This document shows positions 5,740 through 63,055 of a DNA stretch of 64,000 bases, piece by piece; the first letter of the stretch is position 1, and each line of letters starts with the position of its first letter. The translations under genes and the position numbers were made by a program. The stretch is taken from the NCBI GenBank assembly GCA_035221665.1, contig CM069143.1:20770001-20834000 (forward strand), in the 5' to 3' direction. Below the pieces are notes generated by a model that was not told the DNA's origin, made no database searches, and saw nothing but the letters and a program-made list of their open reading frames with translations. Source of the DNA: Okamejei kenojei (taxonomy: Eukaryota).

Positions 5740-6430
5740 ACACAGAAGATGATGGTTGTTGGAGGCTAATGATCTTAGCCCCAAGATATCACTGCAGGAC
5801 TTTTGTGGGAGAGTGTCTTACCTCCCAGTCATCTTTAGTTGGTTTATTTTCCCTCCAACATGTTAGGCATTAATGCTTGCACTTAACTGAACCATGTTGT
5901 GAAAATTACAAGTGCTCAGATAATGAAGCGTGCAACAAAATCTGGACATATTTATTGTCACCGTTGACCAGGAACATAAATGGGCAAGCTGTGTAAATAT
6001 TGTAACTACAATTCAGAAGTTGGATATTCTGAGGTGTATGACTCAATTCATGACTCATGAATTCATGAATCCACCATCATCTACGAGGCAGAAATCAGAA
6101 CTGTGATAGAATTCTCCCCACTCACCAAAATGAGTGAACTGCTCCACTATCCAGATCTATTTGGACCCCTGGCTCTCATCAATCCACTAATGTAAACTTG
6201 GTCTGAAGAAGGGTATCGACTCGAAACATTACCCATTCCTTCTCTCCGGAGATGCTGTCTGTCCCGCTGAGTTACTCCAGCATTTTGTGTCTATTTTCAA
6301 TGTAAACTTCCACTCTGTTCAGCAGTCCATCATTTACAAGTGTTTACAACTAAAGAAGAAACTCATCACAGTTTCTCAAGGACAGTTAAAGATGGGAAAT
6401 AAGTGATGGTTAATATCCCACCCATAAATT
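5740..6430 (+). mobile_element. Highly degraded CR1-clade LINE fragment
   Basis: Remnant RT-like words (QDITAG-like near 5785, IYxAxxRxVxExSP-like near 6075). Interrupted by the unit at 6200. Confidence 0.4.
6200..6298 (+). mobile_element. Short Penelope-derived unit with hammerhead-like core
   Basis: GGT-CTGAAGA-A-GGGT(ATCG)ACTC-GAAAC-ATT-ACC. Flanked by the direct repeat AATGTAAACTT (6189-6199 and 6299-6309). Confidence 0.75.
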
Positions 6431-6894
6431 AAAAAATCACAAATGTATTAATTGTACCTACACTTTGAAGTCTGTTTGCAATGCAGAAGCAGATGGATAA
6501 AACACGACATTTGGCGATGTTGACCAAACTCTGACAGCAATAACAATTCCGACATTTCATTATTTCTGAAATAGCCTGCACAGCAAAGGCACTAGCCACT
6601 GGCAACAATAATGTGCAGCAATCACTTTATATCATCAAAATGACAGCCTTTCTTTACAAGGCTGAAGAAAACATTTATTCTTTGAAACCCAACATTAATA
6701 AAACTCTGAATTGATCTCTGGTTTGTACTGAACTTGCCATTCCAGAGCGGTTCAGGAACGCTACAATCTATCCATAGCCCTTAATGTTAGGATGAGAAAA
6801 TGTGGCCACAGTTCCTAATCCTGACTGCAATCCAGTGATCCCTACTGTAAGTGTATAAGACTAAACAAAACTGGGAAGAGGATTAAACATCTTT

Positions 6895-8005
6895 CTGAAA
6901 TAAAAACAGAGAATGCTTCAATATTCAATAAGTTAGGAAAGAGAAACTGTGCCTTAGGTCTGAGACCCTCAAACAGAATTGGGAAAGGGAGAAATAAATT
7001 GGTTTAGGTATTAGAAAAGCTGGGGAGGGACCTCAAGGAAAACATAGGAAAAGGATTTGCAGGAAAAATACATGTAGAAAGAAAGATTAGTTATCTAAAG
7101 TCGGAGAAATTAATATTACGTCCTACAGGCTGCAACGGCCCAGAAGGAAAATAAGCTGTTATTACATTAGTCTGCACTGCAATAGTGCAGGAAGACATAG
7201 ACATAGAGGTTAGGATAGGAAGGCAAATTAAAGTGGCAACAACAGGCAGCTCAGGGTCACTCCTGTGGACTGAAGGCAAGTGCTCTATGAAGCTATCTCC
7301 CAATCTATTGTCTGAGTCTATGTATCCATGATACAAGATGCAGGAATTCATTGTACCTCTGCCTGGATTGCTAAATGGTCCACTCATAAGCTAAAGGTGT
7401 AGTTCAGATCTGCGGCCCTTGCATTTCTGTTTTATCTGCACTTTTTCTGTAAATCCAACACTATATTCTGCACTCAGTTTTTTTTTCCTTTTTCTACTAC
7501 TTACGTAATGGCTTAATTGTACTCATGTCTTGTATGATCTGACTGGATACCATGCAAACAGATTTTTTCACGGTCTCACAGTACACATGACAATAATAAA
7601 CTAATACCTCACTGTATTTGGGCATATAACAATAAACTCATTTGACTTGATCTGCATTTGGTTTCTCCAATGTAAAGGACTCATTGTGAACTCTGAATGG
7701 ATTGGTGAACATCTGAGAAAGCACATATTTTCCCAGCGAACAAAGAGCCATTATGGACTCCGCCTTTCATGAGGTCATCTGTTGCCGGTGGTTTTGTTCT
7801 GGCCCTTTATTCTCCTCCAGTTCACTTCAACACCCTACCTCAATCTTTCAGCCTAAGGAAGGGTTCTGACCCGAAATGTTACCCATTCCTTTTCTCAGGA
7901 GATGCTGCCTGACCTGCTGAGTTACTGCAGTATTTTATGTCTATCACCAAATTGGAAGAAGTGCAAGTGAATATCAGGTTTGCCTGGAAAGGCAGTTTGA
8001 TTTCC
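6895..8005 (-). mobile_element. Penelope-like element 3' part (GIY-YIG endonuclease remnant) with nested insertions
   Basis: Minus-strand remnants TCTSSNLV (near 7945-7970), YIGETK (near 7655-7675) and RLGDSFIEHLPSV..LPVVA (7091 ORF), split by later insertions. Confidence 0.7.
7730..7945 (+). mobile_element. Penelope terminal-repeat unit with mutated hammerhead-like core
   Basis: AAGGGTTCTGACCCGAAATGTTACCCATTCC...GAGATGCTGCCTGACCTGCTGAGTTACT, same family as the 6200 copy. Confidence 0.7.
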
Positions 8006-11000
8006 AAGAGGACAAAGAGAGTTGAAAAGAGGAGAAAGAAACACCAGTCAGGTAATTGGAAAGAAACTGGTATTTCTGAATAATATTCAAAATCTGTTCA
8101 TTTACGTAAGATAGAATGCAAACCTTGACATCCAACTAGCTAAAATTAGCTCAGCTACTTTGGGACACCACAGCAAAATAATTATTAAAATTATAAAGAA
8201 TGCCGGTAATTTGCTCAAAGATCCATTTGTCATGGTACAAATACTTAAAATAAATTTGTCGATGATACTAATAAAATAGCTGGGAAAGGAATTTATTATG
8301 GATGCATTTTAAAATTTGAATGGTTTAAATAATATCTTCCAATATTTTAACTTCCTCTCCCTTGCCAGGCCATGTGATTTAATCTTCTCCTGTGAGGGAA
8401 TCCGAAACAATTTAAGGAAATGCAGTCCAGTATCTAGCATTCATTTCAAACTTGCTTTTCGAGTGAAAATGTTATCAAGCAGATTGGCATGTTTTGTTTA
8501 AGCATGCCTCCAGTTAATGAATTTTCCATTATTTCATACCCCACACAAATGGGAGACTTTGAAAGAGTAGGATTTTTAATGTAATTAAACCTGCCTTGCT
8601 CTATGAAAGAATTTAGGCAGTTGGCATTTTTTTTGTCAATTCTGCATTTCATCAGCACAGTGTGTCGTATTTTTAAATAGTCAAGACTGTCCTGTAACTA
8701 AAAGGTTAAAGTCAAGGGATGTGATTTCCACTGCTTTGTAATCTTTTCATATCAAAATATCCAGCCTAAAAACTCATAAATCCAAAATCAAATCCGAAGT
8801 CTGAAACAGAATTAGATTACTGGAAGAAGCACTGGATTGGAATTCAGAAATTAAAATATGATTGAAACAACAGATTGAAATATATACCAAAGAGGAAGTT
8901 AACACAACATGAGAAAAACCAAGATTTATGATAATAAAATCTGTGACACGTTAGAATACAAAACCTTTATGAAACATGCTACCCGAAATTGACTTTGACA
9001 CGATAAAATTAACAAGAGCATTTGAGTAGGTAAGTATTGTATTACTATTTTTATTCATTCATTTTGACGACCAAAATGTATGATTTAATAATGATTCAAA
9101 TAATAATACTTTCTATCTCATATCAGCACAAAGCTGCTTTGATCAAGTATGATGCAAATCAGCAGCTCTTAGCTTTGCCCCGACAATGTAACCAGCTCCG
9201 GCCTAAATCATTTGAGAAATCCCCACTGCATATTTCTTATGTTCTAAGGTAGCAGGTGATGTTCAGTTGATGACATACAAGATTCTTACATTATTTTCCA
9301 TCATATGATCTCTGAATCTAGAGAGGCTGACCATCAAGATCTCAACTCTTACAACTTCATGCAAGGGTCAGGCTGCCACATACTACACTCCGCATCTGCC
9401 TAGTTTTCTCCATTATTTTCTTCTAACTCATTGACAGTTCAGTTATGTGAGAAAGCTCATACAGTAACTATTCTTTACCTATAAACTTTGAGTGAGTGTT
9501 AAAGCCTATGGGATGTAATGGTGAGGGGTGGAGGGGTAGGTGCATCACAGTTGAACTTGCCCTGGGCATATACATATTTCAGCAGAGGTTACAGTGGCAG
9601 GCTTGTTAAGCTATTCTACTGAGTCGTGCTGCAACATTTATCTGTAAGCGGTGATCCACCTATTTGCACTTACACACCCCCAGCATGCCTACAATTACCA
9701 GAATGAGTACAATCTTCCTTGAAACACTGAAAGAATTTGACACATAGTACACCAATGTGTTACCTTCGTACCTCAGTAATTACTAGGGCTGAGAATATTT
9801 GTACAACACATCGCTTCCAATCTGATCCTTATCACAGTTATGGAATATGTTGTTCACTGCAAGCTTCTTGCCTTAATGATGGAATTTCCAAAACATCAGC
9901 GACATCCTGACCTTTTAACAGCAATCTATCCTGTACCCTATATATCTGTATCACTAATTATTGCTGCAGTTATTCACTACTGAGTATTCCATCTTGTAAT
10001 AAACATTATGATTTTTTATTACCTTACTTGGACTGTGCAGTCATTATCAGCTAGCTAAAAACATTGGCAGTGCAACTCAATACCACCAGTACGGCTATTT
10101 TTTTGGTTTGGCACTGATAGTAAGGTTATCGATAGCAATTACCTTGAACCATTAGTTATTAGAATTATCAGCCTTCCAGCACATTTCTGATTACATTTAT
10201 ATTCAGTGATACAAACAATCTACAAGAAATATCACTGGAGCATTTAAATAACTTTTTTTTTTTCATTTGTTTTCAATACATGTGTGTTGGTTCTAAAATA
10301 GTGGAAGTGAGGGAAAAACAATCATCTGGTTAGTGCCACAGGAATGTTGAATGCTGGAAATTGTGCAACAAAGTCTCTAGGAATTGGCAAGCAGGCCAGC
10401 AGTGCATCATTAGAGAACAGCTCAGTGGAAAAATAGCTCAAATGTCTTAACACAGAGGAGAAAGTAGATAACGGCTGAAGTAGAACCACTTGAAATTCAG
10501 GAAACCGCGAAACAACGGTTGATCAGCCAACCTTTTAGAAAGCTCTTGAAACACTGCACACAGTTGTACCCTGGAGGGAAGAGATGATGATTTCCAAAAG
10601 TCAGGGGAATAGTAAGTCAACCCTATCTATGATGGGAGTGAAACCAGCAGCAGGCAAATAATGCTGAAGTTAAAGCAGAAACAGCGTGCAATTGGAGGGT
10701 ATTTGGTAGATAAAGGCAAGATCACGGGAGGATGTCACTTTGGAATCAACTTTCAGGTGATTTGAGATATAAGTGTTCTATTTATACTGACTGTTGGAAA
10801 GAGCTATCAACCTCTTTGAAGCATTAACATCCCAATTAACAATGGCTGGCCAGCAAACAGTCATCCGTGCTTGTGACCACGCAAAGCCCAGTCTTTCTCC
10901 AAAAGTTCAACAGAGATGCAAGTGATTCAACTGAACTCTCAATCTTTGATTGGATTACTGTTTAAAATGTAGTTGTTACTACTCCATTTGGCACAATATA

Positions 11001-12170
11001 ATCAGCAAATTAAATTTCTCATTGAGGATATTACTGCCGAAGGCTAAATGATTTTCACTTAGATTGTAATAGTGAAATTACTGCAATTTGGGGAAAGTAC
11101 AGTCTGCTAAGCAATGAAGCACGCCTAGTTACTCAGTGTATACCATGTTTTATTGTGCTCTGTCACTGACGGAGACATAGTCAAATGGAAACTTTGTGGA
11201 ATGACCACACAACTCTTGGGTTCTTTGTTCCTGGTAAAACTCAAATGAATGGAAAGTTGTCTTGAGAGACATTATCATTTTTGCACTCACTGTTCTTGCT
11301 GCAATTAAAGACAACACTCAGACTATGGACAAAAGGAAACTTGCCAGCAGCTTTACCTCCTTGTCACAAATGTGTTGCCTTCACCGCAGGGAAAATTGTA
11401 CCCTGCTGAGGGAACCAATAAGCCTACAAGCCTCCTTTTAACCACTACTTTTCTTTCTGCTCTACTATTGTATTTGCTGGCTTTAGCTGTTTACTGCAAA
11501 TTCTGCATTGCAAATCTCTTAGTTATTCATTTTGGGGAAGCAGTGGGGTAGGGGTTGGGTGCTGGAGGTGTGTGTTTGGGTGAGACAATGGGTAGGCGGT
11601 TATATTTTCTGAATGCACTTGTGCACAAGTATTAATGCTTATAGCTGACATAACCTAGAGAATGCATTGGCCAATGCAGCAAATAACGCCAAAACCTGAC
11701 GACTGATGCATATAGTATAGGGTCCTTAATGGGCATTGTACTTATGTATGGCACAATATTATTGAACTGTATCCAAAAAAAGAATCTCACTGTACCTTGG
11801 TACATGTGAAGAACCATTGAACCAATGTTCAGCACACTGTGGATAGATGAGACACATTGATAGCCTCCCATCAAGAAAACATGAGAGTCTTGAGCGTACA
11901 TTGACAAGTGTGAAATAAAATATGATTTTAGATTTAACCTATGCAATTCTATTAACGGTTTTTGTATTAGTCTTTTTTTTTTTTCCAGTATTTTGGAATT
12001 AATTCTCAGAGGCTTTATAACCTTTTTGGATGTGTATTATGAGATTTGAGCAAAGGCTTTCACTTAAGCTATTAAAACCTTGTATAACTGAATCATTTAT
12101 GCCACATAAAGGGCACTTTTCCAATGCTTAAAACTGTCAATTTCCATGTCAGATTGTCACAGATTCAAAT

Positions 12171-12442
12171 CATGGACACAGAGAGAAACTGCACAGTAAC
12201 AGGCCCTTCGGCCCACAGAGTCTATACTGGCAACCATCCATTTACACTAATCCTACATTAGTCCCAATTTTAACACCCTAAAATCTCATCACCTCCCACT
12301 AAATTCTCCTACACATTAGGACAATTAACCTACCAGCCTGCCCCTCTTTGAGATGCGGGAGGAGACTGGAATACCTAAAGGAAACCCATGCAGTCAATGG
12401 TAGCGTAAAGCAATAGCTGTACCAGCTGCGCCACTGTGCCGC
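12171..12442 (-). mobile_element. V-SINE (HE1-like)
   Basis: Ends in GCTGCGCCACTGTGCCGC (reverse complement of a tRNA-like head). Carries the tail ACAGGCCCTTCGGCCCAC. Confidence 0.75.
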
Positions 12443-12757
12443 GTCAAATTACACACTAGTTACTCCAGCGAACTGCTGCTCCTGTAATCGCCAGGATTTA
12501 AAGCAGGGTATGGAAATCCCACATGATTGAGATAATTTGCTTGATGGTGGGAAAACGTATTATGTGTGTTACTTAACAAAACAATAGTAAATATAAAACT
12601 TAGAGCCAAGTGATTCTGGTGTACCTACTGGGAGGCACTGTAGAGCAACGCTAATGTTCAAGTTGGCCTTAGAAGGCCTGCTGCAAATTTCAGTTGGGAC
12701 CATGGCCTGGTAGCACATATGTTCATGCGGTCACCAGTCAAGACCATGTTCAAGGAT

Positions 12758-13066
12758 CAAAGCACAAATGCTGGAGCAATTCAGTGGGTCAGGTTGAGTG
12801 TCAGGGTCAGGAAGAATGGCCCAACCTGAAATGTCACTTATCCGTTTCCTCTGCAGATGCTGCCTGACCTACTGAGTTAGCCAGCATCTTGCGTTTTACA
12901 ATTGGAACTAATGTAGGATTAGTGTAAATGGGTGGTTGGCAGTTGGCATGGACTCTGTGGGCTCTAGAGCCTGTTACTGTGCTGTTTCTCTCTGTGTCCA
13001 TGACTTGACCCTGTGACAATCTGATATGGAAATGTCAAGATTCCAGCATCAGCAATTCCTTGTACT
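12758..13066. mobile_element. Head-to-head Penelope-derived unit containing an inverted copy of nearby DNA
   Basis: Perfect 14 bp flanking direct repeat CCATGTTCAAGGAT (12744-12757 and 13067-13080). Internal 12900-13033 is an inverted copy of 12140-12269. Confidence 0.75.
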
Positions 13067-13563
13067 CCATGTTCAAGGATGTAGGGCGGAAAGGTCCAAT
13101 GGAGATGTTCTCTGATCAAGTTGGTGGCAGGTGATGCATACAGCCTGGAAATGTTAATGCCTTGGATTAGTAGTCAGGGTTAATCTGAACCTTACAGGGA
13201 TTCCAGCAATCCATTGCTGTGGTCTCAAGACCCTGGTATCCTGCGATTACCAACGGGATATCAATAACATTCCAAGATCTCACAAACTGCTCCTTAAGGA
13301 GCCCTTAAGGTGACAGGCACAGAACTCATATCAAGGGATCCACGCACTCATGCCAGGAAGGGCCTGATCAAATTTTTCAAATGGCTCAAAACAACCGAGA
13401 TGTGGTTGCTATTGTGTTTCACTCCAGAAAATTAATCAATTTGCAATAGGAAGATGTCAAAAGAAAATGTGAAAGTTTTGTATTTAAAAGAATAGATCTT
13501 TATTTTGCACAAATATGCAAAGAGAAATGTTAGATTTACAATTAATTTGTACTATGATTTGTA

Positions 13564-16945: not shown

Positions 16946-17504
16946 TGTATTGTGTACAGTGTTGGTCTCCTAATTTGAGGAAGGACATCCTTGTGATTGA
17001 GGCAGTGCAGCATTGGTTCATGAGATTGATCCCTGGGATGGCGGGACTGTCATACAAGGAAAGATTGAAAAGACTAGGCTTGTATTCACTGGAGTTTAGA
17101 AAGATGAGGGGGGATCTTATAGAAACATATACAATTCTAAAAGGACTGGACAGGCTAGATGCAGGAAAAATGTTCCCAATGTTGGGCGATTCCAGAACCA
17201 GGAGCCACGGTCTTAGAATAAAGGGGAGGCCATTTAGGACTGAGGTGAGGAAAAACGTTTTCACCCAGTGAGTTGTGAATTTGTGGAATTCCCTGCCACA
17301 GAATACAGTGGTGGCCAAATCACTGGATGGATTTAAGTGAGTTAGATAGAGCTCTAGAGGCTGGTGGAATCAAAGGATATGGGGAGAAGGCAGGCACGGG
17401 TTATTGATTGGGGACAATCAGCCATGATCACAATGAATGGCGGTGCTGGATCGAAGGGCCGAATGGCCTCCACCTGCACTTATTTTCATTGTTTCTATGT
17501 TTCT
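16946..17504 (+). mobile_element. 5'-truncated CR1 LINE (HER1-like)
   Basis: RT C-terminus RLIPGMAGLSYKERLKRLGLYSLEFRKMRGDLIETY..RTRSH, followed by 3'UTR and a TTTCTATG-repeat tail. Confidence 0.92.
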
Positions 17505-18339: not shown

Positions 18340-18848
18340 CACGTTGAGGAAGTGCAGAGAAGGTTCACCAGACTGATTCCTGGGATGTCAGGACTGTCTT
18401 ATGAAGAAAGACTGGATAGACTCGGTTTATACTCTCTGGAATTTAGGAGATTGAGAGGAGATCTTGTAGAAACTTACAAAATTCTTAAGGGGTTGGACAG
18501 GCTAGATGCAGGAAGATTGTTCCCGATGTTGGGGAAGTCCAGGACAAGGGGTCACAGCTTAAGGATAAGGGGGAAATCCTTTAAGACCGAGATGAGAAAG
18601 ACTTTTTTCACACAGAGAGTGGTGAGTCTCTGGAACTCTCTGCCACAGAGGGTAGTTGAGGCCAGTTCATTGGCTATATTTAAGAGTGAGTTGGATGTGG
18701 CCCTTGTGGCTAAGGGGATCAGAGGGTATGGAGAGAAGGCAGGTACGGGATACTGAGTTGGATGATCAGCCATGATCATATTGAATGGCGGTGCAGGCTC
18801 GAAGGGCTGAATGGCCTACTCCTGCACCTAATTTCTATGTTTCTATGT
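18340..18848 (+). mobile_element. 5'-truncated CR1 LINE (HER1-like), younger copy
   Basis: Uninterrupted 134 aa RT C-terminus QRRFTRLIPGMSGLSYEERLDRLGLYSLEFRRLRGDL..., followed by a TTTCTATGTTTCTATG tail. Confidence 0.93.
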
Positions 18849-19119
18849 TGAAAATAGATGTGGTTCCACACATAGTATATCTACCCGATGGTCCCCACTA
18901 CTTATTGTGTAGGAAGAAACTGCAGATGCTGGTGCATGGTCTGGCTAAATAATGGGAAGGTTATGGGTGGCAGCCAGGGGCTGTCTTTCCAAATCCTTAT
19001 GTAGGGTTAGCCCTTTACCATTGACTGTGCTTCTCCTTCCACAGGTGCTTCTTAATCTGCATTTTCTGTTTTAATTCCCCAGAATCAGTGCAACATTAAC
19101 ACATAACAGATAAACAAAG

Positions 19120-19250
19120 ACACAAGCGAGACTGCAAATGTTGTAATCTGGAGCAAAAAAACACCTGCTGGAGAAACTCACTTGGTGAGGCAGCATTTGT
19201 GGAGGCAAAGTGAGGGCCAACGTTTTGGGTAGCACCCTGCATTAGGACGT
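19120..19250 (-). mobile_element. Penelope-derived short unit (degraded)
   Basis: CTGCTGGAGAAACTCA..GGCAGCATTTGTGGAG..AACGTTTTGGGT is the reverse complement of the family consensus. Confidence 0.6.
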
Positions 19251-20677
19251 CATAAGAATAAAAATAAACAAAGACATTACAATTAACCAAGCCTCTGGTA
19301 CTGGAGAGTTATGGGACACATGCTGTAGCAATACAACAATTTGAATAGTGTGTTTAATGTAATAAAACAAGGCAAAGTTCTTCATGGAGTACAATCAAGA
19401 AAACCAGTTGACACTGTGATTAGGAACAATAATCAGAAGGTTGGTTAAAGAGGTTAATTTTAAGCACAGACACTCACTTAACAACTTGGCAGTATGTGTA
19501 GGTCAGTGCAACCCTTGCCAGTGGAGTCATCATCATTATCTATATTATAAAATATCTTTATTCACTATGAAATGAAGTGTGTGGGTTTATATGTCAACCA
19601 ACTGGTTCTAAATCTTTGAAAAGCCGGATCCTCTCAATTTTATTTCACTTTATGTAGCTATCCTAAAAATCAGGTCAAACTATTTTAATGATGATTATTA
19701 AAAACAGGGGCTGTTTTAAAAGCGTTACATGCCTTTTACTTTGAAAAAACAACAAAATTTTTAATGCAGCTGCCCGATAATTGTAGCATATTCATCATAA
19801 GAAGGTTAATCTAAGTGAGTCATTATTGCCAGGGTTATAGATTTCTCTGGATGCATGTAATACAAAAGAGGAAAAATGAACAAATGTGTTTGTAAATGAA
19901 CAAATTGCGAGCAAGCAGTATTTTCAGATATGAATCAGTAATTACCATTCATGTAGTTCAGTGACCAGAGATAAAAATTAAATCTACAATTTTACTGCAC
20001 ATCTCTCGTTGCAGCATTGTCTGTTCAGCATCCTGTTCTTACCAAATTAAATGGAAAGTTTAAGTTCAACAGCTCCTGTCTTTGTGCTACACACAAATAA
20101 AAATGGTAGAATAATGGATGTTATGGACAAGTAACCTGGAGAGCTAGATTAATGATCCTGAAACTCAGGTTTAATTCTGCAGCAGGTGAAGGATTTTGAT
20201 TCAGCTGGTATTGAACAGGCGACTTGTATCATAAATGGTGCCTATAAAACTACCGGAAGATTATAAAATCCTCCATGTCCTCTAATGTACATTAGTGAAA
20301 GATTTTTGCTGCCCTTATCCAGCATATCCTAAATGTGCCTCGAATGCAAGATTTTTAACTGCCTGGTGAACAGTCAAGCAAATCACTCAATTGTATGAAA
20401 TCGTTACATCAAAGCATGAGAATGAAATCGAACGGGCCACCCTTCATTGGTCTCAGTGTTGGTTATGGGCCCAACAAAGGCATACACAGCCCAGTCAGCC
20501 GCACAAAATACTCTGCACAAATATCTGGGGACTTGAGCCTAAATTGGAGAGCTGTCCCACAAGTAATAACAGAAAGTGCTGGAGTAACCCATCTGCTCAG
20601 GCAGCATCCATGAGAGGGAATGGACAGATGAGATTTCAGGTCAGGATGGCTGAATTCTAATCCTATCCTTTATGACC

Positions 20678-30600: not shown

Positions 30601-30607
30601 TGAAAGG

Positions 30608-47320: not shown

Positions 47321-47334
47321 GTTTTACTCCACCT

Positions 47335-48270: not shown

Positions 48271-51200
48271 AATCTATTTCTGCCACCATGCATATTTAAT
48301 TTGTTTTAAAGATATTCTACTCGGCATGTAGCAAATTACTGGAAAAGACACAAGGCACAAAACAAGCCTTAATGCAGTTTCCTTTTCATTAACATGTTAT
48401 TATAATACACAAGAGGCAGGCAACAGTTCCTTTATAATGGTGGTGGAAAAGGTTGAATACTTGAATGGACAACATAGCACACAGATAACATAATAAGGTA
48501 AAATGAGAGCACTTTATAATCATAAGTTCCACAATATTTGTTGTTATTTGCATTTGCAATAACTGATGTTGATTTTTTTTTAAACCTATGACAGTGGCCT
48601 CCCTCAGTCCCCTGGGCCCCAGATCCAATCCTTCACTCTTTAGTTTGATATGTGTGTCACACCCTAGAGAGTGAGTTACTGTAAATTTCCCAAACTACAT
48701 GCCGTGTGCGAGCTCCTGAAGGCATCAGCTTGTAATGGAAATGCTGAAGCATAGCTCGGGTGTTTACTGCACGCTATCACAGATGATTAGGATGGTGGTC
48801 ATCATATAAGCATTACAAACTGCTGGCTGGACAAATAAAAACAGAGAATTAGAGTAGGGAAAAAAAAAATCAGCACTGCAAAAATCTTGACTAAAATGAA
48901 ATGCAGGAGGATCTGCAGTGGTCAGCGGCATGACACGAGTGCGTATAAATCACGTCAAGGACCTGAGGTGCAAGGATCGACCTTAAAGAGGCCATGCACC
49001 TTTTATTTTGGTTGAACTGACATCAAATAGTAACATTTCTAATGTGTTTCTTGTTCAGAGGCCTTCTGTTGGCTCCTGACTCATTGGTAATAATTAATAT
49101 ATTGATCGTGCTCAGAAGGAAATCTTTGAGCATCATTCCCTCGATTTTTATTGTAATTTGAAGCTATTCTCTACATAGAGGCCATTTCCATTGAGCATAA
49201 ATACAAAATAGAACAGTCAGATATCAGCATCATAGTGCATGATTGACATTGTGGCAATGTAATGCAGAACTTGATTTGAAGTAATGTCAGGAGCATCATT
49301 TTGTACATGAGATAGATATTGTTTTGGAGGCTTAAATGTACTGTAAGTGCATGACAGACTACGTGTCAGAGAAATGTAGCCAAACACATACAAGGTATAA
49401 AATGTATAAATACAAAGCTGGCCCAGAAAATATAATAAGTATGAATGGGTTACTTGTAGTTTAGTTCCAGTCAGGGACTCATGTACCTCAAAGACACTGG
49501 AACCGGATATCAGGACCCTTTTAAATTTATTGTGGTTTCCTCTGTATTGGATACATTAGTGATGATTTCAAATAGGTTTTCATTGATTGACATCACATAC
49601 CCACACCATGTGTAAACTTCCATCATGTCACATTCAGCAGCAAGCTTTATAATAACTAAGTAATTAAACATTTCATGGATCATCATTCATTAGGTAATAA
49701 CACAGAAGGATGTCTTTGAAATTCCAGGAAATGGAGAAAAAAAATCTCCTGAATCCTGTTTCAAACCAACTCAAGTAAATAAATGCTGGCAGGATATTGT
49801 GTCCAAAGCTTTTCTGTGGCTCAAGCGCCATAAATAATACAAAACAACCAGTTTGAGCACTTTTATTAAGGGTCAACCCGATTTAGCAGGTCAGTGCAGA
49901 AAACCTGATGAATTGTAAATTGTAAAAGTCCAGATCTTTAATCATGCAAAAATTTGAATCTCTTCTTTATACGTTATGAATTAATAGGAAATTCCTAAAA
50001 GAGATACCAGGTCAGATCTTGCTCATTTGGTCCCATTGCCTGCATTCACCACCTACAGTTCTTCCCCATGCACCTGCTTACCAAATCCTGATGCAGAGTT
50101 CCAATATTGTAGTCCTGAAGCAACTTTAGCCATGACTTTAGCCACGAGACAGAGTGGTGGCAGGGGCCGCTGATGATGCAGCCATGGAGCGATGCCCTGG
50201 AAACAGGTCTGATAGCACTGACATCTGTCAAAACCCCACCCTCAGCCTTAGCAGCGGCAAAGGTTGTGAAGGATGTTTATAAGCTTTTAACTGCCCTTAA
50301 TGTTCAAGAATATTAAAAGGTTATAATTATTAATTTAAAAAAGTCACCTTGAAACATAGATGATTACAGAAAATATTTGCAAGACTCATTAAGTCAGGAT
50401 ATATCTGCAGAAAGAAAAGCAGTTAACTTTCAGGTTGAGTGCCCTTTGTCAGTTGAGATGAAGAGATCTGGACCTAAATGTTTAGTGGGTTTCTTCCTAT
50501 TGATTCTGCTGAGTGTTTCCAGCACTCTCAATTTTTAATCCAAATTTCTAATATCTGTGCAGTTTTTTTGTTTTAATTTTCAACAAAAATAGTTGAACTC
50601 ATTAAATCAAAGCAAAAACTGAAAACTAATTAAGGAAAGTAAACTTCCTTCCCCTTTGCCTTCTAATCACCAGCCTGCAGTACCAATTGATATAAATGGA
50701 GCCCGAGGTTCTGAGAGCCAATTGCCCAACATACGTAGTGGGAAATCTCAACACAACAGGGCTCCGCAGTCACAGAGTGAAGTGACAGATTCAGTGTTCT
50801 TGGGACTTGAGTATTTGACAGTGCACATGCAGAGGTCCTGGACTTAATGTTGCTTAATCCACTAAATGCTGATGTCCCATTTATAGTTGTTAGCATGAAC
50901 ATTGCATATCAGTCCAAAATCTTTACATCAGGATGTCACTGTACAGTGTAAACATGAATATTTAATACATTATTTATCATTTAATATATAATTAACAACT
51001 GTATTGTACTTTTGAAACAAAGCATATTGTGCCACTGATATTTTGGACATACCTTTGGTCCTTAATATTGATTTTTAATATAATCTGTTTATCCATATCA
51101 TAAATGTTCCCTGTGGCATGGATGGGGCTAATGGCTTAATAACACAGAAACGGAGCATTCATACTTAAAACTTACTGAAAGGTTGTTCATACTGCCTTTT

Positions 51201-51554: not shown

Positions 51555-51850
51555 CCGGCTACGATGGGAGAATCTAGAACCAAAGGGCACAGAGTAAAAT
51601 GACATACATTTAGAATGGAGATGAAGAGGAATTTCTTTAAGCAGAGGGTGGTGAGTCTGTGGAATTAATCACCACAGAAGGCTTCAGAGGCGGTCATTGT
51701 GTATTTTTAACGTAGGTTCTTGATGAGTAAGGATGTCAAAGGTTATAGGGAGAAGGCAGGAGAATAGGGTTGATAAGGAAAAATAGACCAGTCATGATCA
51801 AAAGGCGGGCCATACTCGATGGACTGAATGGCCTACTTCTGCCCTCATAA
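51555..51850 (+). mobile_element. CR1 3' fragment
   Basis: GAGATGAAGAGGAATTTCTTTAAGCAGAGGGTGGTGAGTCTGTGGAAT and the 3'UTR word GAATGGCCTACTTCTGC. Confidence 0.8.
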
Positions 51851-52118: not shown

Positions 52119-52574
52119 TGTCAGAACTGAACGAGGACACAAATGCAGGCTCAGACATAGGGCAGATCCATATTCAGAGTTTAATCGGTCCAAGTCGGTA
52201 CACAGGTAAGCAAACACTGAAGCTACAGTAATCTAGCAGCAGGCAAAAACAGTGGTCAAAAAAACAGGCCGCGGTCGAGTACACAAAGTCACAATATTTC
52301 TAGAGATGGAACGAGGTGATACCAGGTAGCATACACAACGAACTGGCAAAGAAACCTAAAACACAAAGGCTTAAATACAGACTTAACAGGGGATAACAAG
52401 ACACAGGTGAAACACATCAGGGCAGGATCAACAATCACATGAGGGTAAACGACCCGACAGGAAATGACACCTGAAACAAGAGGAGATGTGAAGCACTAAA
52501 ATAAAGCAAGAATGCAACCTCAAATACTCAAAACCAATAAGGAACAGAAACTAGATTCAACGCGAGACCCGACA
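52119..52574 (-). repeat. Complete 3' LTR (456 bp)
   Basis: TGTC...GACA termini, adjacent to the polypurine tract GGAGGGTGGGGTAC (minus strand). Confidence 0.92.
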
Positions 52575-55500
52575 GTACCCCACCCTCCACGGCCAGCTAC
52601 TGACGGCCCAGGATCGTCAGGATGTTGGCGCTGATATTCCCTGATAAGTTCTGGGTCGCATATGTTGCGAGCCAGCACCCAGGACCGCTCCTCAGGTCCA
52701 TAACCCTCCCTATTCCACAAGATACTGACAACCACGACGGCGCATCCCCAGCAACCGGCTGACCGTAAACACTGGACCCCTATCAGGGAACCGGGGGGGG
52801 GGGTGTGGAGGCAGGGACCAAAGAACTCTCCTTAACTGGCTTCAGTCGGGAGTCATGGAAAGTGGGGTGGACGCTCATGGCACGGGGGGAGTCTGAGATG
52901 AACCGCCACAGGATTGATGATCTTCGAGATCAGGAAAGGACCAACAAAACAAGGAGCCAGCTTCCGGGATTCCATCCTCAGAGGTAAGTCGAGTGGAGAG
53001 CCACACCTTTTGGCCCGGCGAGTATACTGGAGGCAGCGTTCTTCCACGATCAGCCATCCTCTTGTAACGCGCAGAACTGCACAACAGCACCTGACGAGCC
53101 CCATTCCAAACCTTGCGACAGCGACGGATGAGAGCCTGAGCAGAGGGCACACTGGACTCCTTCTCCACAGCAGGGAACAATGGCGGTTGATAACCATAGG
53201 CACACTGGAATGGAGAGAGACCAGAGGATGAGCAAGGAAGTGTGTTGTGTGCATACTCCACCCAAATAAGGTGCTTGCTCCAAGTTGAAGGATTCTGTGC
53301 CACCAAGCACCGCAGTCCTGTCTCCAATTCCTGGAGAAGGCATTCAGTTAGTCCGTTGGATTCCGGGTGATAACCAGATGCAAGGCTGACCGTGGCATCC
53401 AACAGAGAACAAAACTCCTTCCAAAACCTGGACACGAACTGAGGCCCCTGGTCAGACACAATGTTTCTGGGAAATCCATGAATTTGAAAAACATGAGACA
53501 ACATGACCTCTGCCGTCTTCCTGGTGGAGGGAAGCTTGTGCGACGGAATGAAGTGGACCATCTTAGAAAATCTGTCCACCACAGTCATGACTGGTGTTAC
53601 CTTCAGAAGAGGGCAGGCCCGTGACAAAGTCCATGGAGATCTCTGACCAGGGGCGTGAGGGGACAGGCAGCGAATTCAGGAGGCTAAAGGGGGGGCCGAC
53701 ACGAGGTCTTGTTCTGAGCACAAATACTGCAGGCGGCGACATACTCCTTAATCCCCTTCTCCATGGAAGGCCACCAAAACTGCTGTTGGGCCACAAACAG
53801 AGTTCGACGGACACCGGGATGACAGGAGATCCGAGACGTACGAGCCCAGTGAATCACCTGTGAGCGAAGAGACTCGGGAACAAACAGACGATTAGAAGGA
53901 CACCCTAACGGAGACTGAACACCAGCAGTAGCCTCGGAAACTCTCCTCTCAACCTCCCAAGTAACTGCCCCAACAAAACAGGAATCGGGCAGAATGGGGG
54001 TTGAAACCTTGGGGGACGGGTCAGGATCAAACTGTCTGGAGAGAGCATCAGGTTTGCCATTCTTGGCACCAGGGCGGTAAGACAGTACAAAATCAAATCG
54101 ATTAAAGAAGATAACCCAGCTAGCTTGGCTCGAGTTGAGGCGTTTGGCTGACTTGATGTACTCCAGGTACTTGTGGTCTGTCCAAACTAGAAACGGCTGC
54201 TTGGTACCCTTTAATCAATGTCTCCATTCCTCCAAGGCTGCTTTAACCGCTAACAGTTCACGGTTACCCACATCGTAATTTCTCTCAGCAGGAGAAAACT
54301 TTCTTGAGAGGAAAGCGCAGGGATGTAGTCGACCATCTGTGGAGGATCTCTGGGAGAGTACGGCCCCGATGCCCACACCTGAGGCATCCACCTCAACCAC
54401 AAACTGGAGTGACGGGTCAGGGTGAACCAGGATGGTGGCTGAGGAGAAGCTCCTCGAGTCTCATAAATGCTGTGTCTGCTTGAGGGGACCAAGAGAAATG
54501 CACGTGGGGTGAGGTGAGAACATGGAGTGGTGCAGCAATAACACTAAAGTTAAACTTCCTATAAAAATTAGCAAACCCAAGGAACCCCTTATGTCTGGAG
54601 GGTGTAGGCCAGGTGGCCACAGCACTGACCTTGCCCGGATCCATCTGTATCCAATCAGGTGACACAACATAACCAAGGAATTGAACAGTGTTAACATGAA
54701 ATTGACATTTTTCATCTTTCACAAACAGATCATTCGAGAGCAAACTTTCCTGCACCTGGTGTACATGCTGCACATGGGAAGATTCATCTGGAGAAAAAAA
54801 AAAAATCAAAATGTCATCAAGGTACACAAACACAAATTTGTTCAGTATGTCCCATAATACATCGTTCACCATGCCTTGAAAAACGGCTGGAGCATTAGTA
54901 AGACCAAACAGCATGACCGATATTCATAATGACCACTGGGTGTGTTAAATGCAGTCTTCCATTCATCCCCCTCCCTTATCCTTACTAGATAAGCATTTCT
55001 AAGATCCAACTTAGTGAATATTTTAGCAGTTCAAATTCAGAGGAGATAAGAGGAAGAGTGTATCTGTTCTTAACAGTAATGTCATCGAGTCCTCTGTGGT
55101 CAATGCAGGGCCGAAGTGTTCCATCCTTCTTATCCACAAAGAAGAATCCAGCTCCTGCAGGTGAAGAGGAAGGTCTGATGATCCCAGCAGCAAGGGCGTC
55201 GTCAATGTACTTTTCCATGGCGAGTCACTCAGGTGAAGACAAGGAATAAAGACGACCCTTAGGAGGCGCTGTACCTGGCAGAAGGTCAATGCAGCAGTCG
55301 TACGGTCTATGCGGCGGAAGAGAGGTGGCCTTGGCCTTGTTGAACACCTCCTTAAGGTCTAGATAACACAAGGGAACCCTGGTGAGATCTGGAAAATCCC
55401 CCTCCTTAGAACGGGGAGGCTGCCAGAGGGTGGTCCTGGAAGATCCCAGCAAACTGCTCCTTGATGGATCCTTCATAGACTCAGGAGAGGAATCCTGTAG

Positions 55501-56486
55501 ATAGATGAGTTTACAGTTATTACCCCAAGAAATTACTTCCCCAGAACCCCAGTTCATATGAGGATTATGGTAAGACAGCCAAGGGAGCCCCAAAACCAGA
55601 GGATGAAGAGAACAGTCGAGGAGATGAAAACTGATGGTCTCCAAGTGATTACCTGCCACGATGAGTTGAACAGGTGAGTTTGGTGAATCACCCTGTACAT
55701 TAAGCGCCCATCCAGTGCACTAGCCTGCAGCGGATGTTGAAGCTGTTCACGTTCCAGCTTCAATTCATCAGCCAAGCAAATGTCCATAAAGTTCTCATCT
55801 GCCCCAGAATCAACCAAAGCCTGCAGGGAGCGCCACTGGGAATGCACCAACAATTGTACAGTTGCGAGTTGACGAGAGGAACGGCTCATAGGAGTGGTAC
55901 AACTCACCAATGTCTTCTCTTTCATTGGTGAGCCTTGTCTCTTTACTGAACAGCTGTTCAACAAATGTCCCAGCTCCCCACAGTAAAAACACCTCACCTC
56001 CCTTAGGCGGCGCTGCCATTCCTCTGGGCTGAGTTTGGCTCGTCCCACCTGCATGGGCTCCTCCGAAGAGACAGGTGGCGCTGTGGGCTGACTGGACCAG
56101 CCGAGAGGGACGAAAGTCCCGACCGGACGGCGAAGGGCGACGCTGCCACCACTGTTGGGAGGAGGACCAAACTTCCGCCGATCTCCTCTCTCACTCTCTT
56201 TTTCTCAGCCCAGTGTCAATCTGGACAGCCAAGGAAATCATGGACTCTAAGTCAGAAAGCAGGGTTAGTGGAGCCAACTGATCCTTGATAGCTTCAGAGA
56301 GCCCATTGCGAAAAGCATCCAACAAAGCAGACTCATTCCATCCACTCTTAGCAGCAACAGTTCGAAATTCAATAGCAAAATCCATAACTGAGTGATTAGC
56401 TTGTTTCATGGAGACCAGGATCTGTGAAGCCTCTCGGCCAGGATTGGAGTGATCAAACATGCAGGACAGAGCTTCCATGAACAGGA

Positions 56487-56691
56487 CTTAAATACAGACT
56501 TAACAGGGGATAACGAGACACAGGTGAAACACATCAGGGCGGGATCAACAATCACATGAGGGTAAACAACCTGACAGGAAATGGCACCTGAAACAAGAGG
56601 AGATGTGAGGCACCAAAATAAAACAAGAATGCAACCTCAAATACTCAAAACCAATAAGGAACAGAAACTAGATTAAACGCGAGACCTGACA
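56487..56691 (-). repeat. Truncated 5' LTR (about 205 bp)
   Basis: Direct repeat of 52370-52574 with about 10 substitutions by manual count. Joins directly to gag-internal sequence. Confidence 0.92.
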
Positions 56692-57059
56692 GAAAAGTAA
56701 ACTTGCAGATAGCAAATTGAAAGCACACAATAATTTCTCTTTTAAATGACTTGAGAAACCTCACACCGATCTGCCCTGCTGATCAGTTCATCAAATGCAA
56801 TCTGGGAGGCCAAATAGAGAAATGAAGTGTCTCCCACTAAGAATGAAATGAAGTGCCTCCCACAAAGGATCTGAATGGGCAGATTAATGTCACCTGTTCC
56901 AAATTTTAGAATACATGGCCATGATATCTTCACTTTTTGTGGCAGGTTACTACAGAGGCACTTGTAGATTCAGTTGAAGGTTGTCCACAATCTTTGAGGT
57001 CAAGGCCAATTGTCCTTGTTGTATGGTCAGTGATGATATAACTACTCTGCACTGGATAT

Positions 57060-57219
57060 GTGTAGGAAGGAACTGTGGATGCTGGTTTAAACCGAAGATA
57101 GACATAAAATGAAGGAGTAACTCGGTGGGACAGGCAGCATATCTGGAGAGAAGGAATGGGTGGCATTTTGGGTGACCTGAAACATCACCCATTCCTTCTC
57201 CAGAGACGCTGCCTGTCTA
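57060..57219. mobile_element. Palindromic head-to-head Penelope-derived unit with perfect 14 bp TSD
   Basis: TCTGCACTGGATAT at 57046-57059 and 57220-57233. Arms GACAGGCAGCATATCTGGAGAGAAGGAATGGGTG and CACCCATTCCTTCTCCAGAGACGCTGCCTGTC. Confidence 0.85.
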
Positions 57220-60200
57220 TCTGCACTGGATATTTCTTATATCCCTTGTATTTGGAGATTGAGTCTGTGTCTCACATGGGTGCTGGCTGGTGTTAAAAAT
57301 CATTGTTGGTACAGTTTTGTGAATGGGTATGATGTCATTCTGTTTTATGATAAATGGCAGGTTTAGTTAAATCTTACTTTTTTCCCTATTGAAGCCAAGA
57401 GTAAAATCAAAGGAGCATCTAAAAGAAAATTGTGATTTACTATTGCGTGTATGTGCAAGCACCCTAGATCAGTTTAGCCCCTGATGTTATAAAGCCTTGT
57501 TGTGAAGGAAATCAGTTCAAAATGCTAAGTTAGCAGGTATGTGCCTTGGGGGAGACTGTGTGATCTTGAAAGTCAAGAGGAATATCAGAAGTACAAATAA
57601 TCAAATGCAAGTAAACAATTGCTACCTGGCATGAATATTTACGATTCATGTAAATACATTATCCAGAAATGTTTTTCAAACAAAAAGGTTGGAACAGAAT
57701 GTAAGTACAAATAGAGAGAGGAAATGGAAAGAATAATGTCCTGGCAAGATACCACAGTAAGGATCTGAGAACATGATTTATATCTCAGCTTTGACCGTGC
57801 ATCATTTTTGTCTATGATGCATGCAGAATAGCAACAATCTCAGTTTTGGCCAAACTTTAATATTGGCCAACAGCTGAGATTGAAATCACTTGCACTTAGC
57901 TGGCTACTAGGAAATCTTAACTTCTGATGGATGATTCTCTCTCATATTGAGCTTCCAACTTGGAATCCTCTGTCTTGACTCCTAACAGAAATGCTAGTTT
58001 GTCGCTGTTGAGATCTTCCTCTCAAAACATAATTTCAGGATCAGATGAACCCTGAACTCAGCATCTATACACAAAGTGTTCAATCCCATATCCTCTCTCA
58101 GAAAATGCTGACAAATTTCCACTCCTATAACCTTGCCAGCTTCCGCCCTGAACATATCTACAAATGGAATCTTAATTCTACAACCTGAACTTCTGGGACC
58201 TGGCCCACCACGTGGTGGTTTACCTGCATACCGTTGCTCACACACAAACTCCTATTCTGGATGCAAAGGGCCATTCTCACTGACCCTCTGCACCCTGTCT
58301 TCAGGCAGGGAAGTGCAGGTGGTAACTAGTCTTCCAGTGGCATAGTCCTGAGGTTCTCTCCCTGGAACTGGCCTGACACAAGGCAAAGTTGGGGACAGAT
58401 CTTTCCCTTGTGTGGTATGAAAGGGCAGTTTGACCATTCTTAAATATTTCTGACATTTACAGCCCTATTTGAAAACATTAAAATTAAATATTAGTTTGTA
58501 AGTAAAAATGATTAAAACCTTTTGTCAGATAAAATAAATGGAAGTGTATTAAATGCTACATTAGGAATCATTTTAAACTAAAATAATAAAAACCTATATA
58601 ACTATTAAACAATGAATCAGGATTAATGAAGTAATTAGAACACTAATTATGATGGAACCTGTTTGAATTGTACTGTTAACCATTGTATTGTTAACCATTG
58701 AACTGTTAACCATTAGGAGAATGTCATTATTTTTGACCGGTTCAAAGTAAAACATTTTGGCTTAATAACCTCCAAAGACATAAAATAGTCATTGTGTTCC
58801 AATGTCTGTAACCTCCTTTAGAACCATGAACCTTCAATCTTTACATTGCTTTATTTCTATTGTTTGTGCGTTCCCATTTTCCTTCACCCTACCGTTGAAG
58901 GCCATGTGAGTCACTATAAAACTTATTTTTGTCATATAATAAAATAGCCTTAAAATGAGATGCTATTAAAGGAGACAACCAGCAAGTCAGGTCATTCACA
59001 TTTGTGTCCAGATCTGGTTTGATTATCTCTCACTCTTCAAATATTCTTTCCCTGTCTTATGAATTATTTTTCTCTAAGCTCACTCTCTCTCTTCCTTCGT
59101 ATCACATCCCATTCTGCAGTGTCTTATTCTTCTAGCACTTCCGATGTGATCTGCACAATGATCTCGCCCAGCACCCCATGCTACATGTTGTATTCCACAC
59201 ACGCGGTAACCCATCCTATCCTGGATAGTCTCACCATTACCATCGCACTCTGTATAACCGTGATATCAATTATACCCTGTACAGTCCCACACATCCAGCA
59301 TGCTGCTCTATCTTTCTCTGTTTTATTCATCCAGAGCACCCTCTCACACTGTACAGTACTTCCCTCACCCATCATTTCTGAATTATTTGGTTCCTTAATT
59401 ACTGAACACCTCAGGCTTAAAATTCCCAATCAGTGATTTCATTATTTTATAACCTCTCTCAATCCCTTTCTTTAAAAACTCTCTTTTCTCCTGACTAACT
59501 TCATATTTCCACTTGAACGTTACAATTTTTGAAGCCTTCCTTTAACTGATAGCTCCCTATTCTCTAATTCACTTCTTATGTGTCTACTTCTATCTTATTC
59601 TCTTTCTTTTATACCACCTCTTTGATCAATCTTTGATCATTTCTCCTTATCTCTTTTGTTTTGCTTGGCATCTGTGTTTGGTTGTAACGGTTCTGTGAGG
59701 TGTCCCAGATCACGTCTCTGCAACCGATTTGCAGGATCCACGTTCCTGTGTAATTATAAGTTGTGCTGTTTTAATGCATAAGTACGTAGGAGGGCGAGTT
59801 AGTTATCTGTTCAGCTCTTTAGTGTAATAAGATCATGACTGGTCTGTGCCATAAATCCATATATCTGCCTTTTACTTTTTTCCATTATAACTTTGGTTAA
59901 CAATAATCAATCAATTTCAGATTAATAAATTAAAAATTAACCTGGAGCCAATTCACATTAATGGAACAGTTCCAATTTTTTACCTTCATCGGTATGTGGA
60001 AGTCATACCTAAATCCAGCCCTACGAGATATGGTTCCAATGCTTTGATGATTTCTTATGGACTTAGATCTTCTAATAATGGCTGTAGTTATTTCCTGCAA
60101 GTGGTATAGGGCCTCTATTTATTCTTCCTATAATTCCTAAACCTGTACTTAACTTGTGCAAAGCTCTCTGCAAGAACTTCCTGAACCTAGCTCTAACCTG

Positions 60201-60299: not shown

Positions 60300-60611
60300 C
60301 AACAACCTGCATTAGCAATCGTTGGACATGCAACAGGTCTCATCCAGTGGAGGCAGATTCCCAATTACAGGAAGCTACTCGGGTCTGAAGAAGGGGTTCT
60401 GCCCGAAACGTTGCCTATTTCCTTCGCTCCATAGATGCTGCCGCACCCACTGAGTTTCTACATCACTTTTGTCTACCTTCGATTTTCCAGCATCTGCAGT
60501 TCCTTCTTAAACAAATCTGCTAGTTGCTTTATGGTCTCCAACAACCAACTGTGGAAGAGATATCTGAAATGCAACTATTGCATGTCCAATGATTGCTAAT
60601 GCAGGTTGTTG
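60300..60611. repeat. 37 bp inverted-repeat pair (MITE-like) enclosing a Penelope-derived unit
   Basis: 60300-60336 and 60575-60611 are complementary at 35 of 37 positions. Confidence 0.8.
60381..60513 (+). mobile_element. Short Penelope-derived unit with the best-preserved hammerhead-like core
   Basis: GGT-CTGAAGA-A-GGG(GTTCTG)CCC-GAAAC-GTT-GCC at 60382-60415. Confidence 0.8.
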
Positions 60612-61899
60612 AAATCAGCTTTCAAGTTCACAGATAGATCTAATTAGACACTAAATGCCTTGCCCAACCTAATGACAAAATCCACAAGTCCATTGACATT
60701 GTGCATTCATTTTCTTCCACAAGTGGTATCTCTATTTATTTCTTCCACACAGTATTCACCCACTGAACTCTCCCCAGACCTACTAGTACTTATTTTTTAC
60801 AAAGGATAGGTTATCCTTGATATATTAGGCTGCTTGGTGAGTTACTCCAGCTCTTTGTGTCTACCTTCAGTTTAATCTAACATCTGCAGTTCCTTCCCAC
60901 ACATGTTGCACATTATTGTGGAAGTTATAAAATGAGGATTGTAAAAATAAGTCAAAATATACTACTTCTCAATAAACAGATACCTGGAGTGGGGTGGTTG
61001 CAACATAACTCTGTGGTGTCCACGTTTCCACTGACATGTCATGGAGCAAGCACCATCTTAAGCTGGTGAATTGCTTGAATAGAGTTGCTCAGGCTCTCAT
61101 CTTAGTTCTCGTACAATTGTGGTTGCACTAATCTTCATCCATGTGTAGGCTGAGCACATTTATGGGGATGTAACAAAATTATGGTAATGACAAACATTTT
61201 CCTAGGCAGAATGGCATATTCATTGTATTTCCTTTGCCAATAACCCAAATATGAGTTTATATAATGTGCATATCTTACCACATCTCCTTGAGCTGGGGCA
61301 AACATTCTTGATTAGTACAGGTGTCAGAGGTTATGAGGAGAATAGGGTTAGGAGGGAGAGATAGATCGGCCATGATTAAATGGCAGTGTAGATGATGGGT
61401 TGAACGGCCTAATTCTATGACCTTATAACATGCAACTATTGTTCCTTCTACCAGCAATGGAACATCCAATTGATGTGCGTAATCACCGACAGTCACCTCA
61501 CTCTGATTTCCCTGATGCCACCAATTGGCATTTGCAATCAGAATATCCTTACAGGAAGCTGGTGGCCTTCTGACCTTGGAAAAGCACCCCATCTCAGAGA
61601 AATTCTATATTCAATATGTTCAAGATCAGGATATAGAAGTTTGAATCACTGATCCAGAGAAATAGACATGAATACCATCATGAAAGTTGGGGAACTTCAA
61701 TTATAAAGTGATTAAACAACTTTGAAATAAAAATAAAATAGCTCCTACCAATAATGGCGGTCATAAAACGGAGAGATTGTAATGTAACAAATTTGAGCCA
61801 TTCAGGTCACTACGCCTTTGCTGTTTGCAAAATAGTTGCCCAAGCAAAGCCCAACTTCCATTGGCGCATTTCTGACATCACTTCCATGCCCCTGAAGAT

Positions 61900-62600: not shown

Positions 62601-62660
62601 ACATACAGCCATGTTTTGTGTTATTTATTTATCATGTTCCCACAGTTAAAACTGGGACTT

Positions 62661-62880
62661 AATGGCCCGTCCCACGTAGGTGACTTTTCAGGCGACCGCA
62701 GGAGACTATGCAGACGCCACATGGTCACATTAATGGATGCCTTCGTGGTCGTGAGGAGTTCCCGCATTCTGGGAGCTAGTCGCGGCTTCATTATGGTCGC
62801 AGCAAATTTTCCAACATGTTGAAAAATTAGCAGCGGCTAGAATGAAGCAGCCATGGAAAGTAGAGAGAATTCTTGTGCTG
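62661..62880. mobile_element. Truncated Harbinger-type MITE fragment
   Basis: The left end ATGGCCCGTCCCACGTAGGTGAC resembles the 47530 terminal repeat. The other end is missing. Confidence 0.55.
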
Positions 62881-62941
62881 ACCAAATTCTGTTGGTCTAA
62901 TTATTGTCTAAAAATAATTTTAGACAATAATTACAGTGGTC

Positions 62942-63055
62942 TCCCAGAAACATCACCCATTGCTTCTATCCAGAGATGCTGCCTATCAAGCTGAGTTACT
63001 CCAGCATTTTGTGTCTATCTTCAATGTAAACCAGCATCTGCAGTTCCTTCCTACA
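62942..63055 (+). mobile_element. 5'-clipped Penelope-derived short unit
   Basis: GAAACATCACCCATT..GAGATGCTGCC..GCTGAGTTACTCCAGCATTTTGTGTCTATCTTC..CCAGCATCTGCAGTTCCTTC. Confidence 0.75.

Follow-up and report, generated by a model that had tools for sequence, protein, structure and literature searches.

A predicted Neptune-type Penelope-like terminal repeat with a minimal hammerhead motif, dispersed in very many short copies in Okamejei kenojei

A short repeat recurs on both strands of a 64,000-nt stretch of the Okamejei kenojei genome (CM069143.1, 20,770,001-20,834,000; hereafter the window, whose own positions serve as coordinates), and its 5' end resembles a hammerhead ribozyme. An earlier sequence-only reading took this unit for a retrozyme- or SINE (short interspersed nuclear element)-like retroposon that moves independently. 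What is the unit, and how did its many short copies arise? The findings below indicate that it is almost certainly the end of a Penelope-like element (PLE).

A first profile made from window copies gave 21 matches at E<=0.05, and none in any of five shuffled windows or in the reversed window. With a second, longer profile (135 positions, built from 12 copies) we accepted 25 pieces at E<=0.5, 22 of them at E<=0.01, which together occupy 3.4% of the window. The sequence-only reading had listed 18 positions for more than 15 dispersed copies on both strands, and each of the 18 holds the unit. The two subfamilies it had described, a GTC and a GTT type, were also recovered, though tree support is weak.

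For evidence from the whole genome we used public contigs of four runs (including X4, X6 and X21, the last flagged as probably DNA), placed on the window at >=85% likeness. The summed contig depth over 62927-63027 was 14.4 million in X4 versus ~30 on unique flanks, and two other species were similar; such sums are not copy numbers and are usable only as an excess of the order of 10^5-fold. The density in the window, about one unit locus per 3 kb, is consistent with that order. The insertions at 60381, 60827 and 62935 are shared between species, as contigs of organism E run from unique flank into each of these copies. A pattern for the central unit found no locus in metagenome, viral or prokaryote collections. 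Our literature search found no paper on this family in cartilaginous fish, and Repbase or Dfam may well list it as Penelope/Neptune. We conclude that the unit is a very abundant new family of an already known type, the PLE-end hammerhead repeat.

The link to a PLE comes from two endonuclease relics and the sequences around them:

36162-36218, minus strand: piece of the unit in inverted orientation before the main relic, as in a PLE 5' inversion; weak, E 0.018-0.047.
36312-36873, plus strand: main relic, a frameshifted Neptune-type PLE linker and GIY-YIG endonuclease (independent E value, iE, 1.5e-14).
36874-37345, plus strand: pyrimidine-rich 3' untranslated region (UTR) ending in CAG, then the unit at 37266-37345 (longer profile).
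6940-8013, minus strand: second PLE endonuclease relic (endonuclease profile), split by two later insertions, with FTCTSSNL at ~7950-7971, the YIG motif at ~7660-7680 and the C-terminus at 7309-7076, followed by a pyrimidine tract and, near 6980, a unit so degenerate that it was recognized by eye but did not reach significance with nhmmer.

The reading frame at 36610-36828 (P0001) found a protein 69% like it (P0002), which in turn found 113 proteins at E<=0.001, including P0090, P0092 and P0008 with reverse transcriptase (RT) and GIY-YIG domains. Ten relatives were scanned; nine carry GIY-YIG, three of them together with an RT that scored below the Pfam cut-off. The YIG motif is present in 75 of 111 relatives, and 61 of those 75 also have a CX2-5CxxC linker. 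A profile of the relatives matched 36613-36873 (iE 1.5e-14), 36383-36571 and, on the minus strand, 7309-7076 (iE 6e-6). Pfam recognized neither P0001 nor P0002, a word-index search for longer relatives found none, and all Atlas matches stayed below 0.8. The RT is absent from both window relics and known only from the relatives, and the linker is degraded in the window relic itself. Assignment to the Neptune clade depends on the linker rather than on an RT phylogeny, and Nematis has the linker too. At the main relic the order is GIY-YIG, pyrimidine-rich UTR, unit, which bears out the earlier claim that the unit ends a Penelope relic. Judged from this arrangement, the unit is the predicted 3' terminal repeat (pLTR) of a Neptune-type PLE.

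Does the unit carry a hammerhead? All four runs (800, 649, 756 and 165 contigs) have majority letters before 62947 that spell an intact core, the extra A and stem II. In the best-preserved window copy, the stem I 5' arm lies at 60381-60384, the core at 60385-60391, the extra A at 60392, stem II at 60393-60404 and GAAA at 60405-60408, with the predicted cut after 60412. The core, the extra nucleotide between 9 and 10.1, the G10.1-C11.1 pair and the palindromic helix III are all complete in this copy. Helix III consists of one core pair and a palindromic CG, a design of the dimer type. In the minimal hammerheads of PLEs, a nucleotide between 9 and 10.1 and the palindrome are conserved (Cervera and de la Pena 2014, PMC4209133; this and the other papers are cited for the parts drawn on here), so the extra A is not the non-canonical feature that had been supposed.

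Single copies are more decayed. All 11 core positions are kept in only two of 11 aligned window copies (6200 and 60381), and two CpG sites are mutated in 8/11 and 9/11 copies, always to TG, CA or TA. The minimal core described earlier holds as a type I motif of the PLE kind for the family majority. Pairing in register reached 71.6%, versus 26-51% when the arms were slid. The covariation expected within the family did not exceed chance, as 411 of 500 shuffles reached the score; pairing in register without excess covariation reflects decay after insertion. Rfam hammerhead models, also proposed as a check, gave no match in the window (E<=5) or in 60340-60540 (E<=10). Minimum free energy folds of monomer and dimer contained no hammerhead, which is expected for such short helices and uninformative.

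Hammerhead patterns matched nothing in the metagenome and viral collections and three loci in prokaryote genomes, none a member of this family. One (L002) was dropped as a chance match in GC-rich, bacterial-looking coding DNA. The others (L001 and L003, animal-like contigs) share the core and have different stem I pairs; across families, four of five stem I pairs change on both sides (1/500 shuffles), a comparison of only four sequences in which stem I lay outside the search pattern. The L003 motif stands ~90 nt behind the stop of an intact, Neptune-like GIY-YIG endonuclease frame of a PLE unrelated to that of the window. Both contigs belong to the bacterial metagenome-assembled genome CBDDTI01, where these animal-type PLE hammerheads probably represent host contamination. 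We conclude that the unit carries a predicted minimal type I hammerhead of the PLE kind, and that single genomic copies are likely inactive relics.

The remaining unit loci, with their target-site duplications (TSDs) where present, are as follows:

815-1065, minus strand: long form, old unit 821-906 (profile match) with ~160 nt of pyrimidine-rich, PLE 3' UTR-like upstream sequence (upstream limit by eye).
6200-6298, plus strand: short copy from hammerhead stem I, 3' end without tail, core 11/11; TSD 6189-6199 / 6299-6309 (11 bp, exact).
7704-7946, plus strand: long form, ~145 nt of upstream sequence ending in a pyrimidine tract and CAG, then the unit; nested in the second relic; no TSD found.
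12758-13066, both strands: head-to-head composite of an inverted piece (minus, 12756-12793), a unit (plus, 12803-12897), an unrelated inserted repeat (12896-13033) and the tail (13042-13063); TSD 12744-12757 / 13067-13080 (14 bp).
18908-18934, minus strand: tail-only fragment (E 0.003).
19122-19263, minus strand: old copy with tail; TSD 19110-19121 / 19264-19275 (12 bp).
20566-20833, minus strand: old copy (20566-20645, 5' part 20817-20833) hit by a young full copy (20678-20810); TSD 20668-20677 / 20811-20820 (10 bp, exact).
26271-26340, plus strand: degenerate copy (longer profile).
39013-39135, plus strand: copy from about model position 10, with tail; TSD 39002-39012 / 39136-39146 (11 bp, one mismatch).
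41712-41934, both strands: head-to-head composite (minus 41720-41845, plus 41857-41935); TSD 41701-41711 / 41935-41945 (11 bp, one mismatch).
43716-43783, plus strand: old degenerate copy (E 2e-4).
44115-44229, plus strand: old copy, core to tail (longer profile).
50367-50528, both strands: old head-to-head pair, weak in the longer profile (E 0.006 and 0.19).
57060-57219, both strands: head-to-head composite with its junction in stem II at 57171-57175; TSD 57046-57059 / 57220-57233 (14 bp).
60381-60513, plus strand: best-preserved copy, tail to 60513; no TSD found.
60827-60901, plus strand: 5'-truncated copy from model position 54, with tail (longer profile).
62935-63057, plus strand: copy that begins within stem II and has the full tail; on it, the two clusters of 3' ends seen across the family correspond to 63015-63023 and 63055.

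All six flanking repeats of the sequence-only reading are present, and the pair at 19110/19264 adds a seventh. An exact match of at least 10 bp is expected by chance in 0.4% of random window pairs. In AT content the duplications (67%) exceed the window (59%). The six loci are not all single units as had been thought: three (12744, 41701 and 57046) enclose head-to-head two-piece inversions instead. Four head-to-head loci were found in total, in addition to the weak inverted piece before the main relic. No TSD was found at 899, 7750, 26271, 44115, 60381, 60828 or 62937, and at the main relic, 43716 and 50400 the flanking matches are only 7-8 bp. Joint evidence on the public contigs is limited to the 15 of 886 joints listed, and no empty-site joint is among them.

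At 6200 the TSD coincides with the unit's own next bases, and the 20811 copy is inserted in stem II of an older copy. Both hint at microhomology or self-targeting at insertion.

At the 3' side, the best-supported contig joints in all four runs fall at 63015-63023 and 63055 (60512-13 in the other subfamily), 36 nt apart. Loose ends behind 63055 (1648, 1619, 1264 and 239 by run) agree at 0.36-0.37, that is, they have no common sequence. Of the 24 3' ends scored in the window, 11 fall at model position 128 or beyond, ten at 88-102 and three earlier. Two values in this count were adjusted by hand: 6200 from 110 to 100, its TSD coinciding with the bases that follow in the unit, and 7850 from 105 to 99. 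In addition, 12810 was counted as tailed across its insertion. The 36-nt gap is the optional 30-40 bp tail of PLEs (PMC8557442), reported elsewhere as 34-37 bp (PMC2377424). Traits recorded for PLEs include the tail, 5' truncation and an inverted 5' copy (PMC8557442). In vitro, the tail is the stretch between two internal RT start sites, targets are AT-rich and uncut RNA is the main substrate (Frangieh et al. 2024, PMC11167929). PLE insertion ordinarily yields both a two-site tail and inversions.

The 5' ends behave differently from randomly scattered boundaries. By our assignment, four of 25 reach more than 100 nt upstream, 17 lie within -12 to +18 of the hammerhead start and four begin further in; paired inversion pieces contribute 5' ends that are not independent. 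Because most ends cluster at the hammerhead edge, the scattered boundaries of ordinary truncated copies are not what is seen, and non-random 5' boundaries, as earlier proposed, hold. The firm cases are the inversion junctions (57171-57175 in stem II) and the four single-piece TSD-flanked copies, all of which start within -12 to +10. Some old long forms may have been scored as short, since three long copies have upstream parts that do not align to one another. At the 815 locus, the 100 nt upstream are 70% pyrimidine (window mean 50%, standard deviation 8%). Two long copies end in a pyrimidine tract and CAG at the edge of helix I. The Drosophila Penelope element has an intron whose end coincides with helix I (PMC4209133), and its transcription begins within the pLTR (PMC2377424).

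How, then, are the short copies made? On balance we favour, with reasonable though limited confidence, that they were written by the PLE's own RT-endonuclease, which stopped at or just inside the 5' edge of the hammerhead. The endonuclease, as PLE biology suggests, would nick AT-rich DNA, and the RT would start inside the RNA at one of two sites (the short end, or the end plus tail) and run toward the 5' end. Long copies with random truncation would result when a downstream repeat serves as the priming site. The frequent product of 115-135 nt would arise when priming takes place on the repeat with which the transcript itself begins, or when the enzyme stalls at the hammerhead fold. The template would likely be uncut RNA, because copies span the cleavage site; any ribozyme activity would likely belong to the full element and involve a dimer or assistance from protein.

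Several observations weigh against run-off or stalling of this kind. The clustering of 17 of 25 5' ends in a 31-nt window far exceeds that of exponential truncation (simulated P<=5e-5). Upstream of the core, the majority letters are not the same from run to run, and those of X4 and X6 are rich in A and T; this argues for a genuine 5' mode. In a tree of 16 copies, all four window copies of the GTT-type group are short (weak support, 72/84), and no full-length autonomous element was seen. The alternative is that solo pLTRs are transcribed alone, from an internal PLE promoter or by read-through, and are mobilized in trans by the Penelope protein, forming SINE-like subfamilies from short non-autonomous masters. 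The 5' cluster, the starts of the four single-piece TSD copies, the heterogeneous upstream letters in X4 and X6 and the very high abundance all speak for such masters, as does the pair 20811 and 60381, which are 90% identical and agree at both ends within 2 nt. However, one subfamily holds long and short forms: the long copy 7850 groups with the short copies 6200, 62937 and 57173 (support 90/90; no branch of the tree is starred), so that the GTC-type group is mixed. Run-off or stalling is favoured over independent short masters on account of these shared subfamilies, and the claim that the short unit is an independently mobile retroposon is not established. Moreover, the X21 loose ends before 60383 are C-rich, like long forms (61 contigs, agreement 0.42), the 5' cluster is perhaps inflated by old long forms that escape detection, and no Pol III signal was found. 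We therefore regard short masters as rather unlikely, although they may coexist with run-off or stalling. A tRNA- or 5S-derived SINE was rejected: no tRNA was found, and none of five scanned copies has a sense-strand A and B box pair. One antisense pair, at one mismatch, occurs in 6200 only. The SINE label is not supported.

The retrozyme label fared no better. A non-LTR (long terminal repeat) retrozyme would self-cleave from tandem units, circularize and reinsert, the dispersed copies being monomers from circular RNA. Monomeric derivatives have been described, as has one chondrichthyan genome with retrozymes (bioRxiv 10.64898/2026.07.22.740005), and retrozyme TSDs can exceed 4 bp (PMC7229834). 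Yet the window holds no tandem array of the unit, none of the 25 pieces begins at the predicted cut and none is permuted, and the listed joints include no unit-length go-back joint. The hammerhead here is also minimal, whereas characterized retrozymes have canonical ones. Since retrozymes are defined by tandem units, and arrays and permuted or cut-site copies are both absent from the window, a circular retrozyme is very improbable.

Compared with known systems, the unit most resembles the pLTR hammerheads of metazoan PLEs (PMC4209133). Shared features are the CUGANGA/GAAA core, the extra nucleotide 9/10.1, the G10.1-C11.1 pair, the palindromic 15.2-16.2 without loop 3 and a link to fish Neptune/Poseidon/Xena. 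Most PLE motifs are likewise single and dispersed, probably truncated PLEs, and some form close opposite-strand pairs. Differences are a helix II of 3-4 bp, where Schistosoma has 7-8 bp, and a weak helix I of 2-4 bp. Abundance is apparently far above the 4,000-9,000 motifs given there for coelacanth and Xenopus, and two supplement files of that paper contain no shark or skate term. Neptune-clade PLEs with an endonuclease (Craig et al. 2021, PMC8557442) share the C-terminal GIY-YIG, the CX2-5CxxC linker (found here among the relatives), a pLTR with a hammerhead, 5' truncation, the inverted 5' copy and the 30-40 bp tail, but the window has only broken endonuclease relics and no RT was seen in it. 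Poseidon PAc of Anolis (PMC11167929) has two 3' ends one tail apart, AT-rich targets and copies across the hammerhead cut, as here; it belongs to another clade, and the sections of that paper used here do not report the pronounced clustering of 5' ends that marks the hammerhead edge in this family. Metazoan non-LTR retrozymes (PMC7229834; bioRxiv 10.64898/2026.07.22.740005) are also short, non-coding, pLTR-related and dispersed as monomers with type I hammerheads, but are defined by hammerhead-bearing tandem units and circular RNA (PMC7229834). Sm-alpha and Sj-alpha of Schistosoma (PMC6155905, PMC6765202) are short dispersed retroposons with a type I hammerhead as well; there a promoter precedes the hammerhead, whereas here the hammerhead forms the start of the unit and a search for Pol III boxes found none.

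Other features of the window surround these copies. The first exon of protocadherin-19 lies at 30539-33163 (minus strand; best match 6vfu, E 1e-209), and we assume that unit copies below 30539 are probably intronic in this gene. Inverted repeats of 37 bp (95%) at 60300-60336 and 60575-60611 enclose the 60381 copy, with contig depth near single-copy; this copy was probably inserted into a miniature inverted-repeat transposable element formed by them. Dispersed repeats with short internal tandem units occupy 457-526, 47526-48076, 62782-62941 and 63719-63985, and since 62904-62941 matches 63948-63985, the 62935 copy landed in another repeat. Fragments of a further abundant repeat lie at 16997-17501, 18344-18849, 51618-51850, 61305-61428, 12140-12276 and 12896-13033, the last within the 12744 composite; we take it to be, probably, CR1/L2 3' ends and a SINE partner. 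A Ty3/Gypsy-type LTR retrotransposon with disrupted RT and integrase frames spans 52370-56692 on the minus strand, its LTRs (52370-52575 and 56487-56692) being 95% identical, and a RT fragment of the long interspersed nuclear element type lies at 42475-43281 (plus strand; RVT_1, E 7e-17).

PLE hammerheads and dispersed solo motifs were already known, and the family itself is unsurprising. Tentatively, a solo monomeric pLTR of 115-135 nt that starts at the hammerhead might spread as a SINE-like partner of Neptune, at the order of 10^5 copies or more across several related species, its fixed 5' end marking either the point where PLE transcription begins or a splice acceptor located at helix I. 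If this were true, it would represent a Penelope-driven, non-tRNA, non-tandem class of SINE-like short retroposon in a vertebrate. In either case the family offers a very large natural data set on the poorly understood transposition cycle of PLEs. Its abundance allows the two 3' start sites, the inversions with breaks inside the hammerhead and the narrow 5' mode at helix I to be tallied over a great number of copies, and such counts would tell transcript-end run-off from ribozyme stalling and from short non-autonomous masters.

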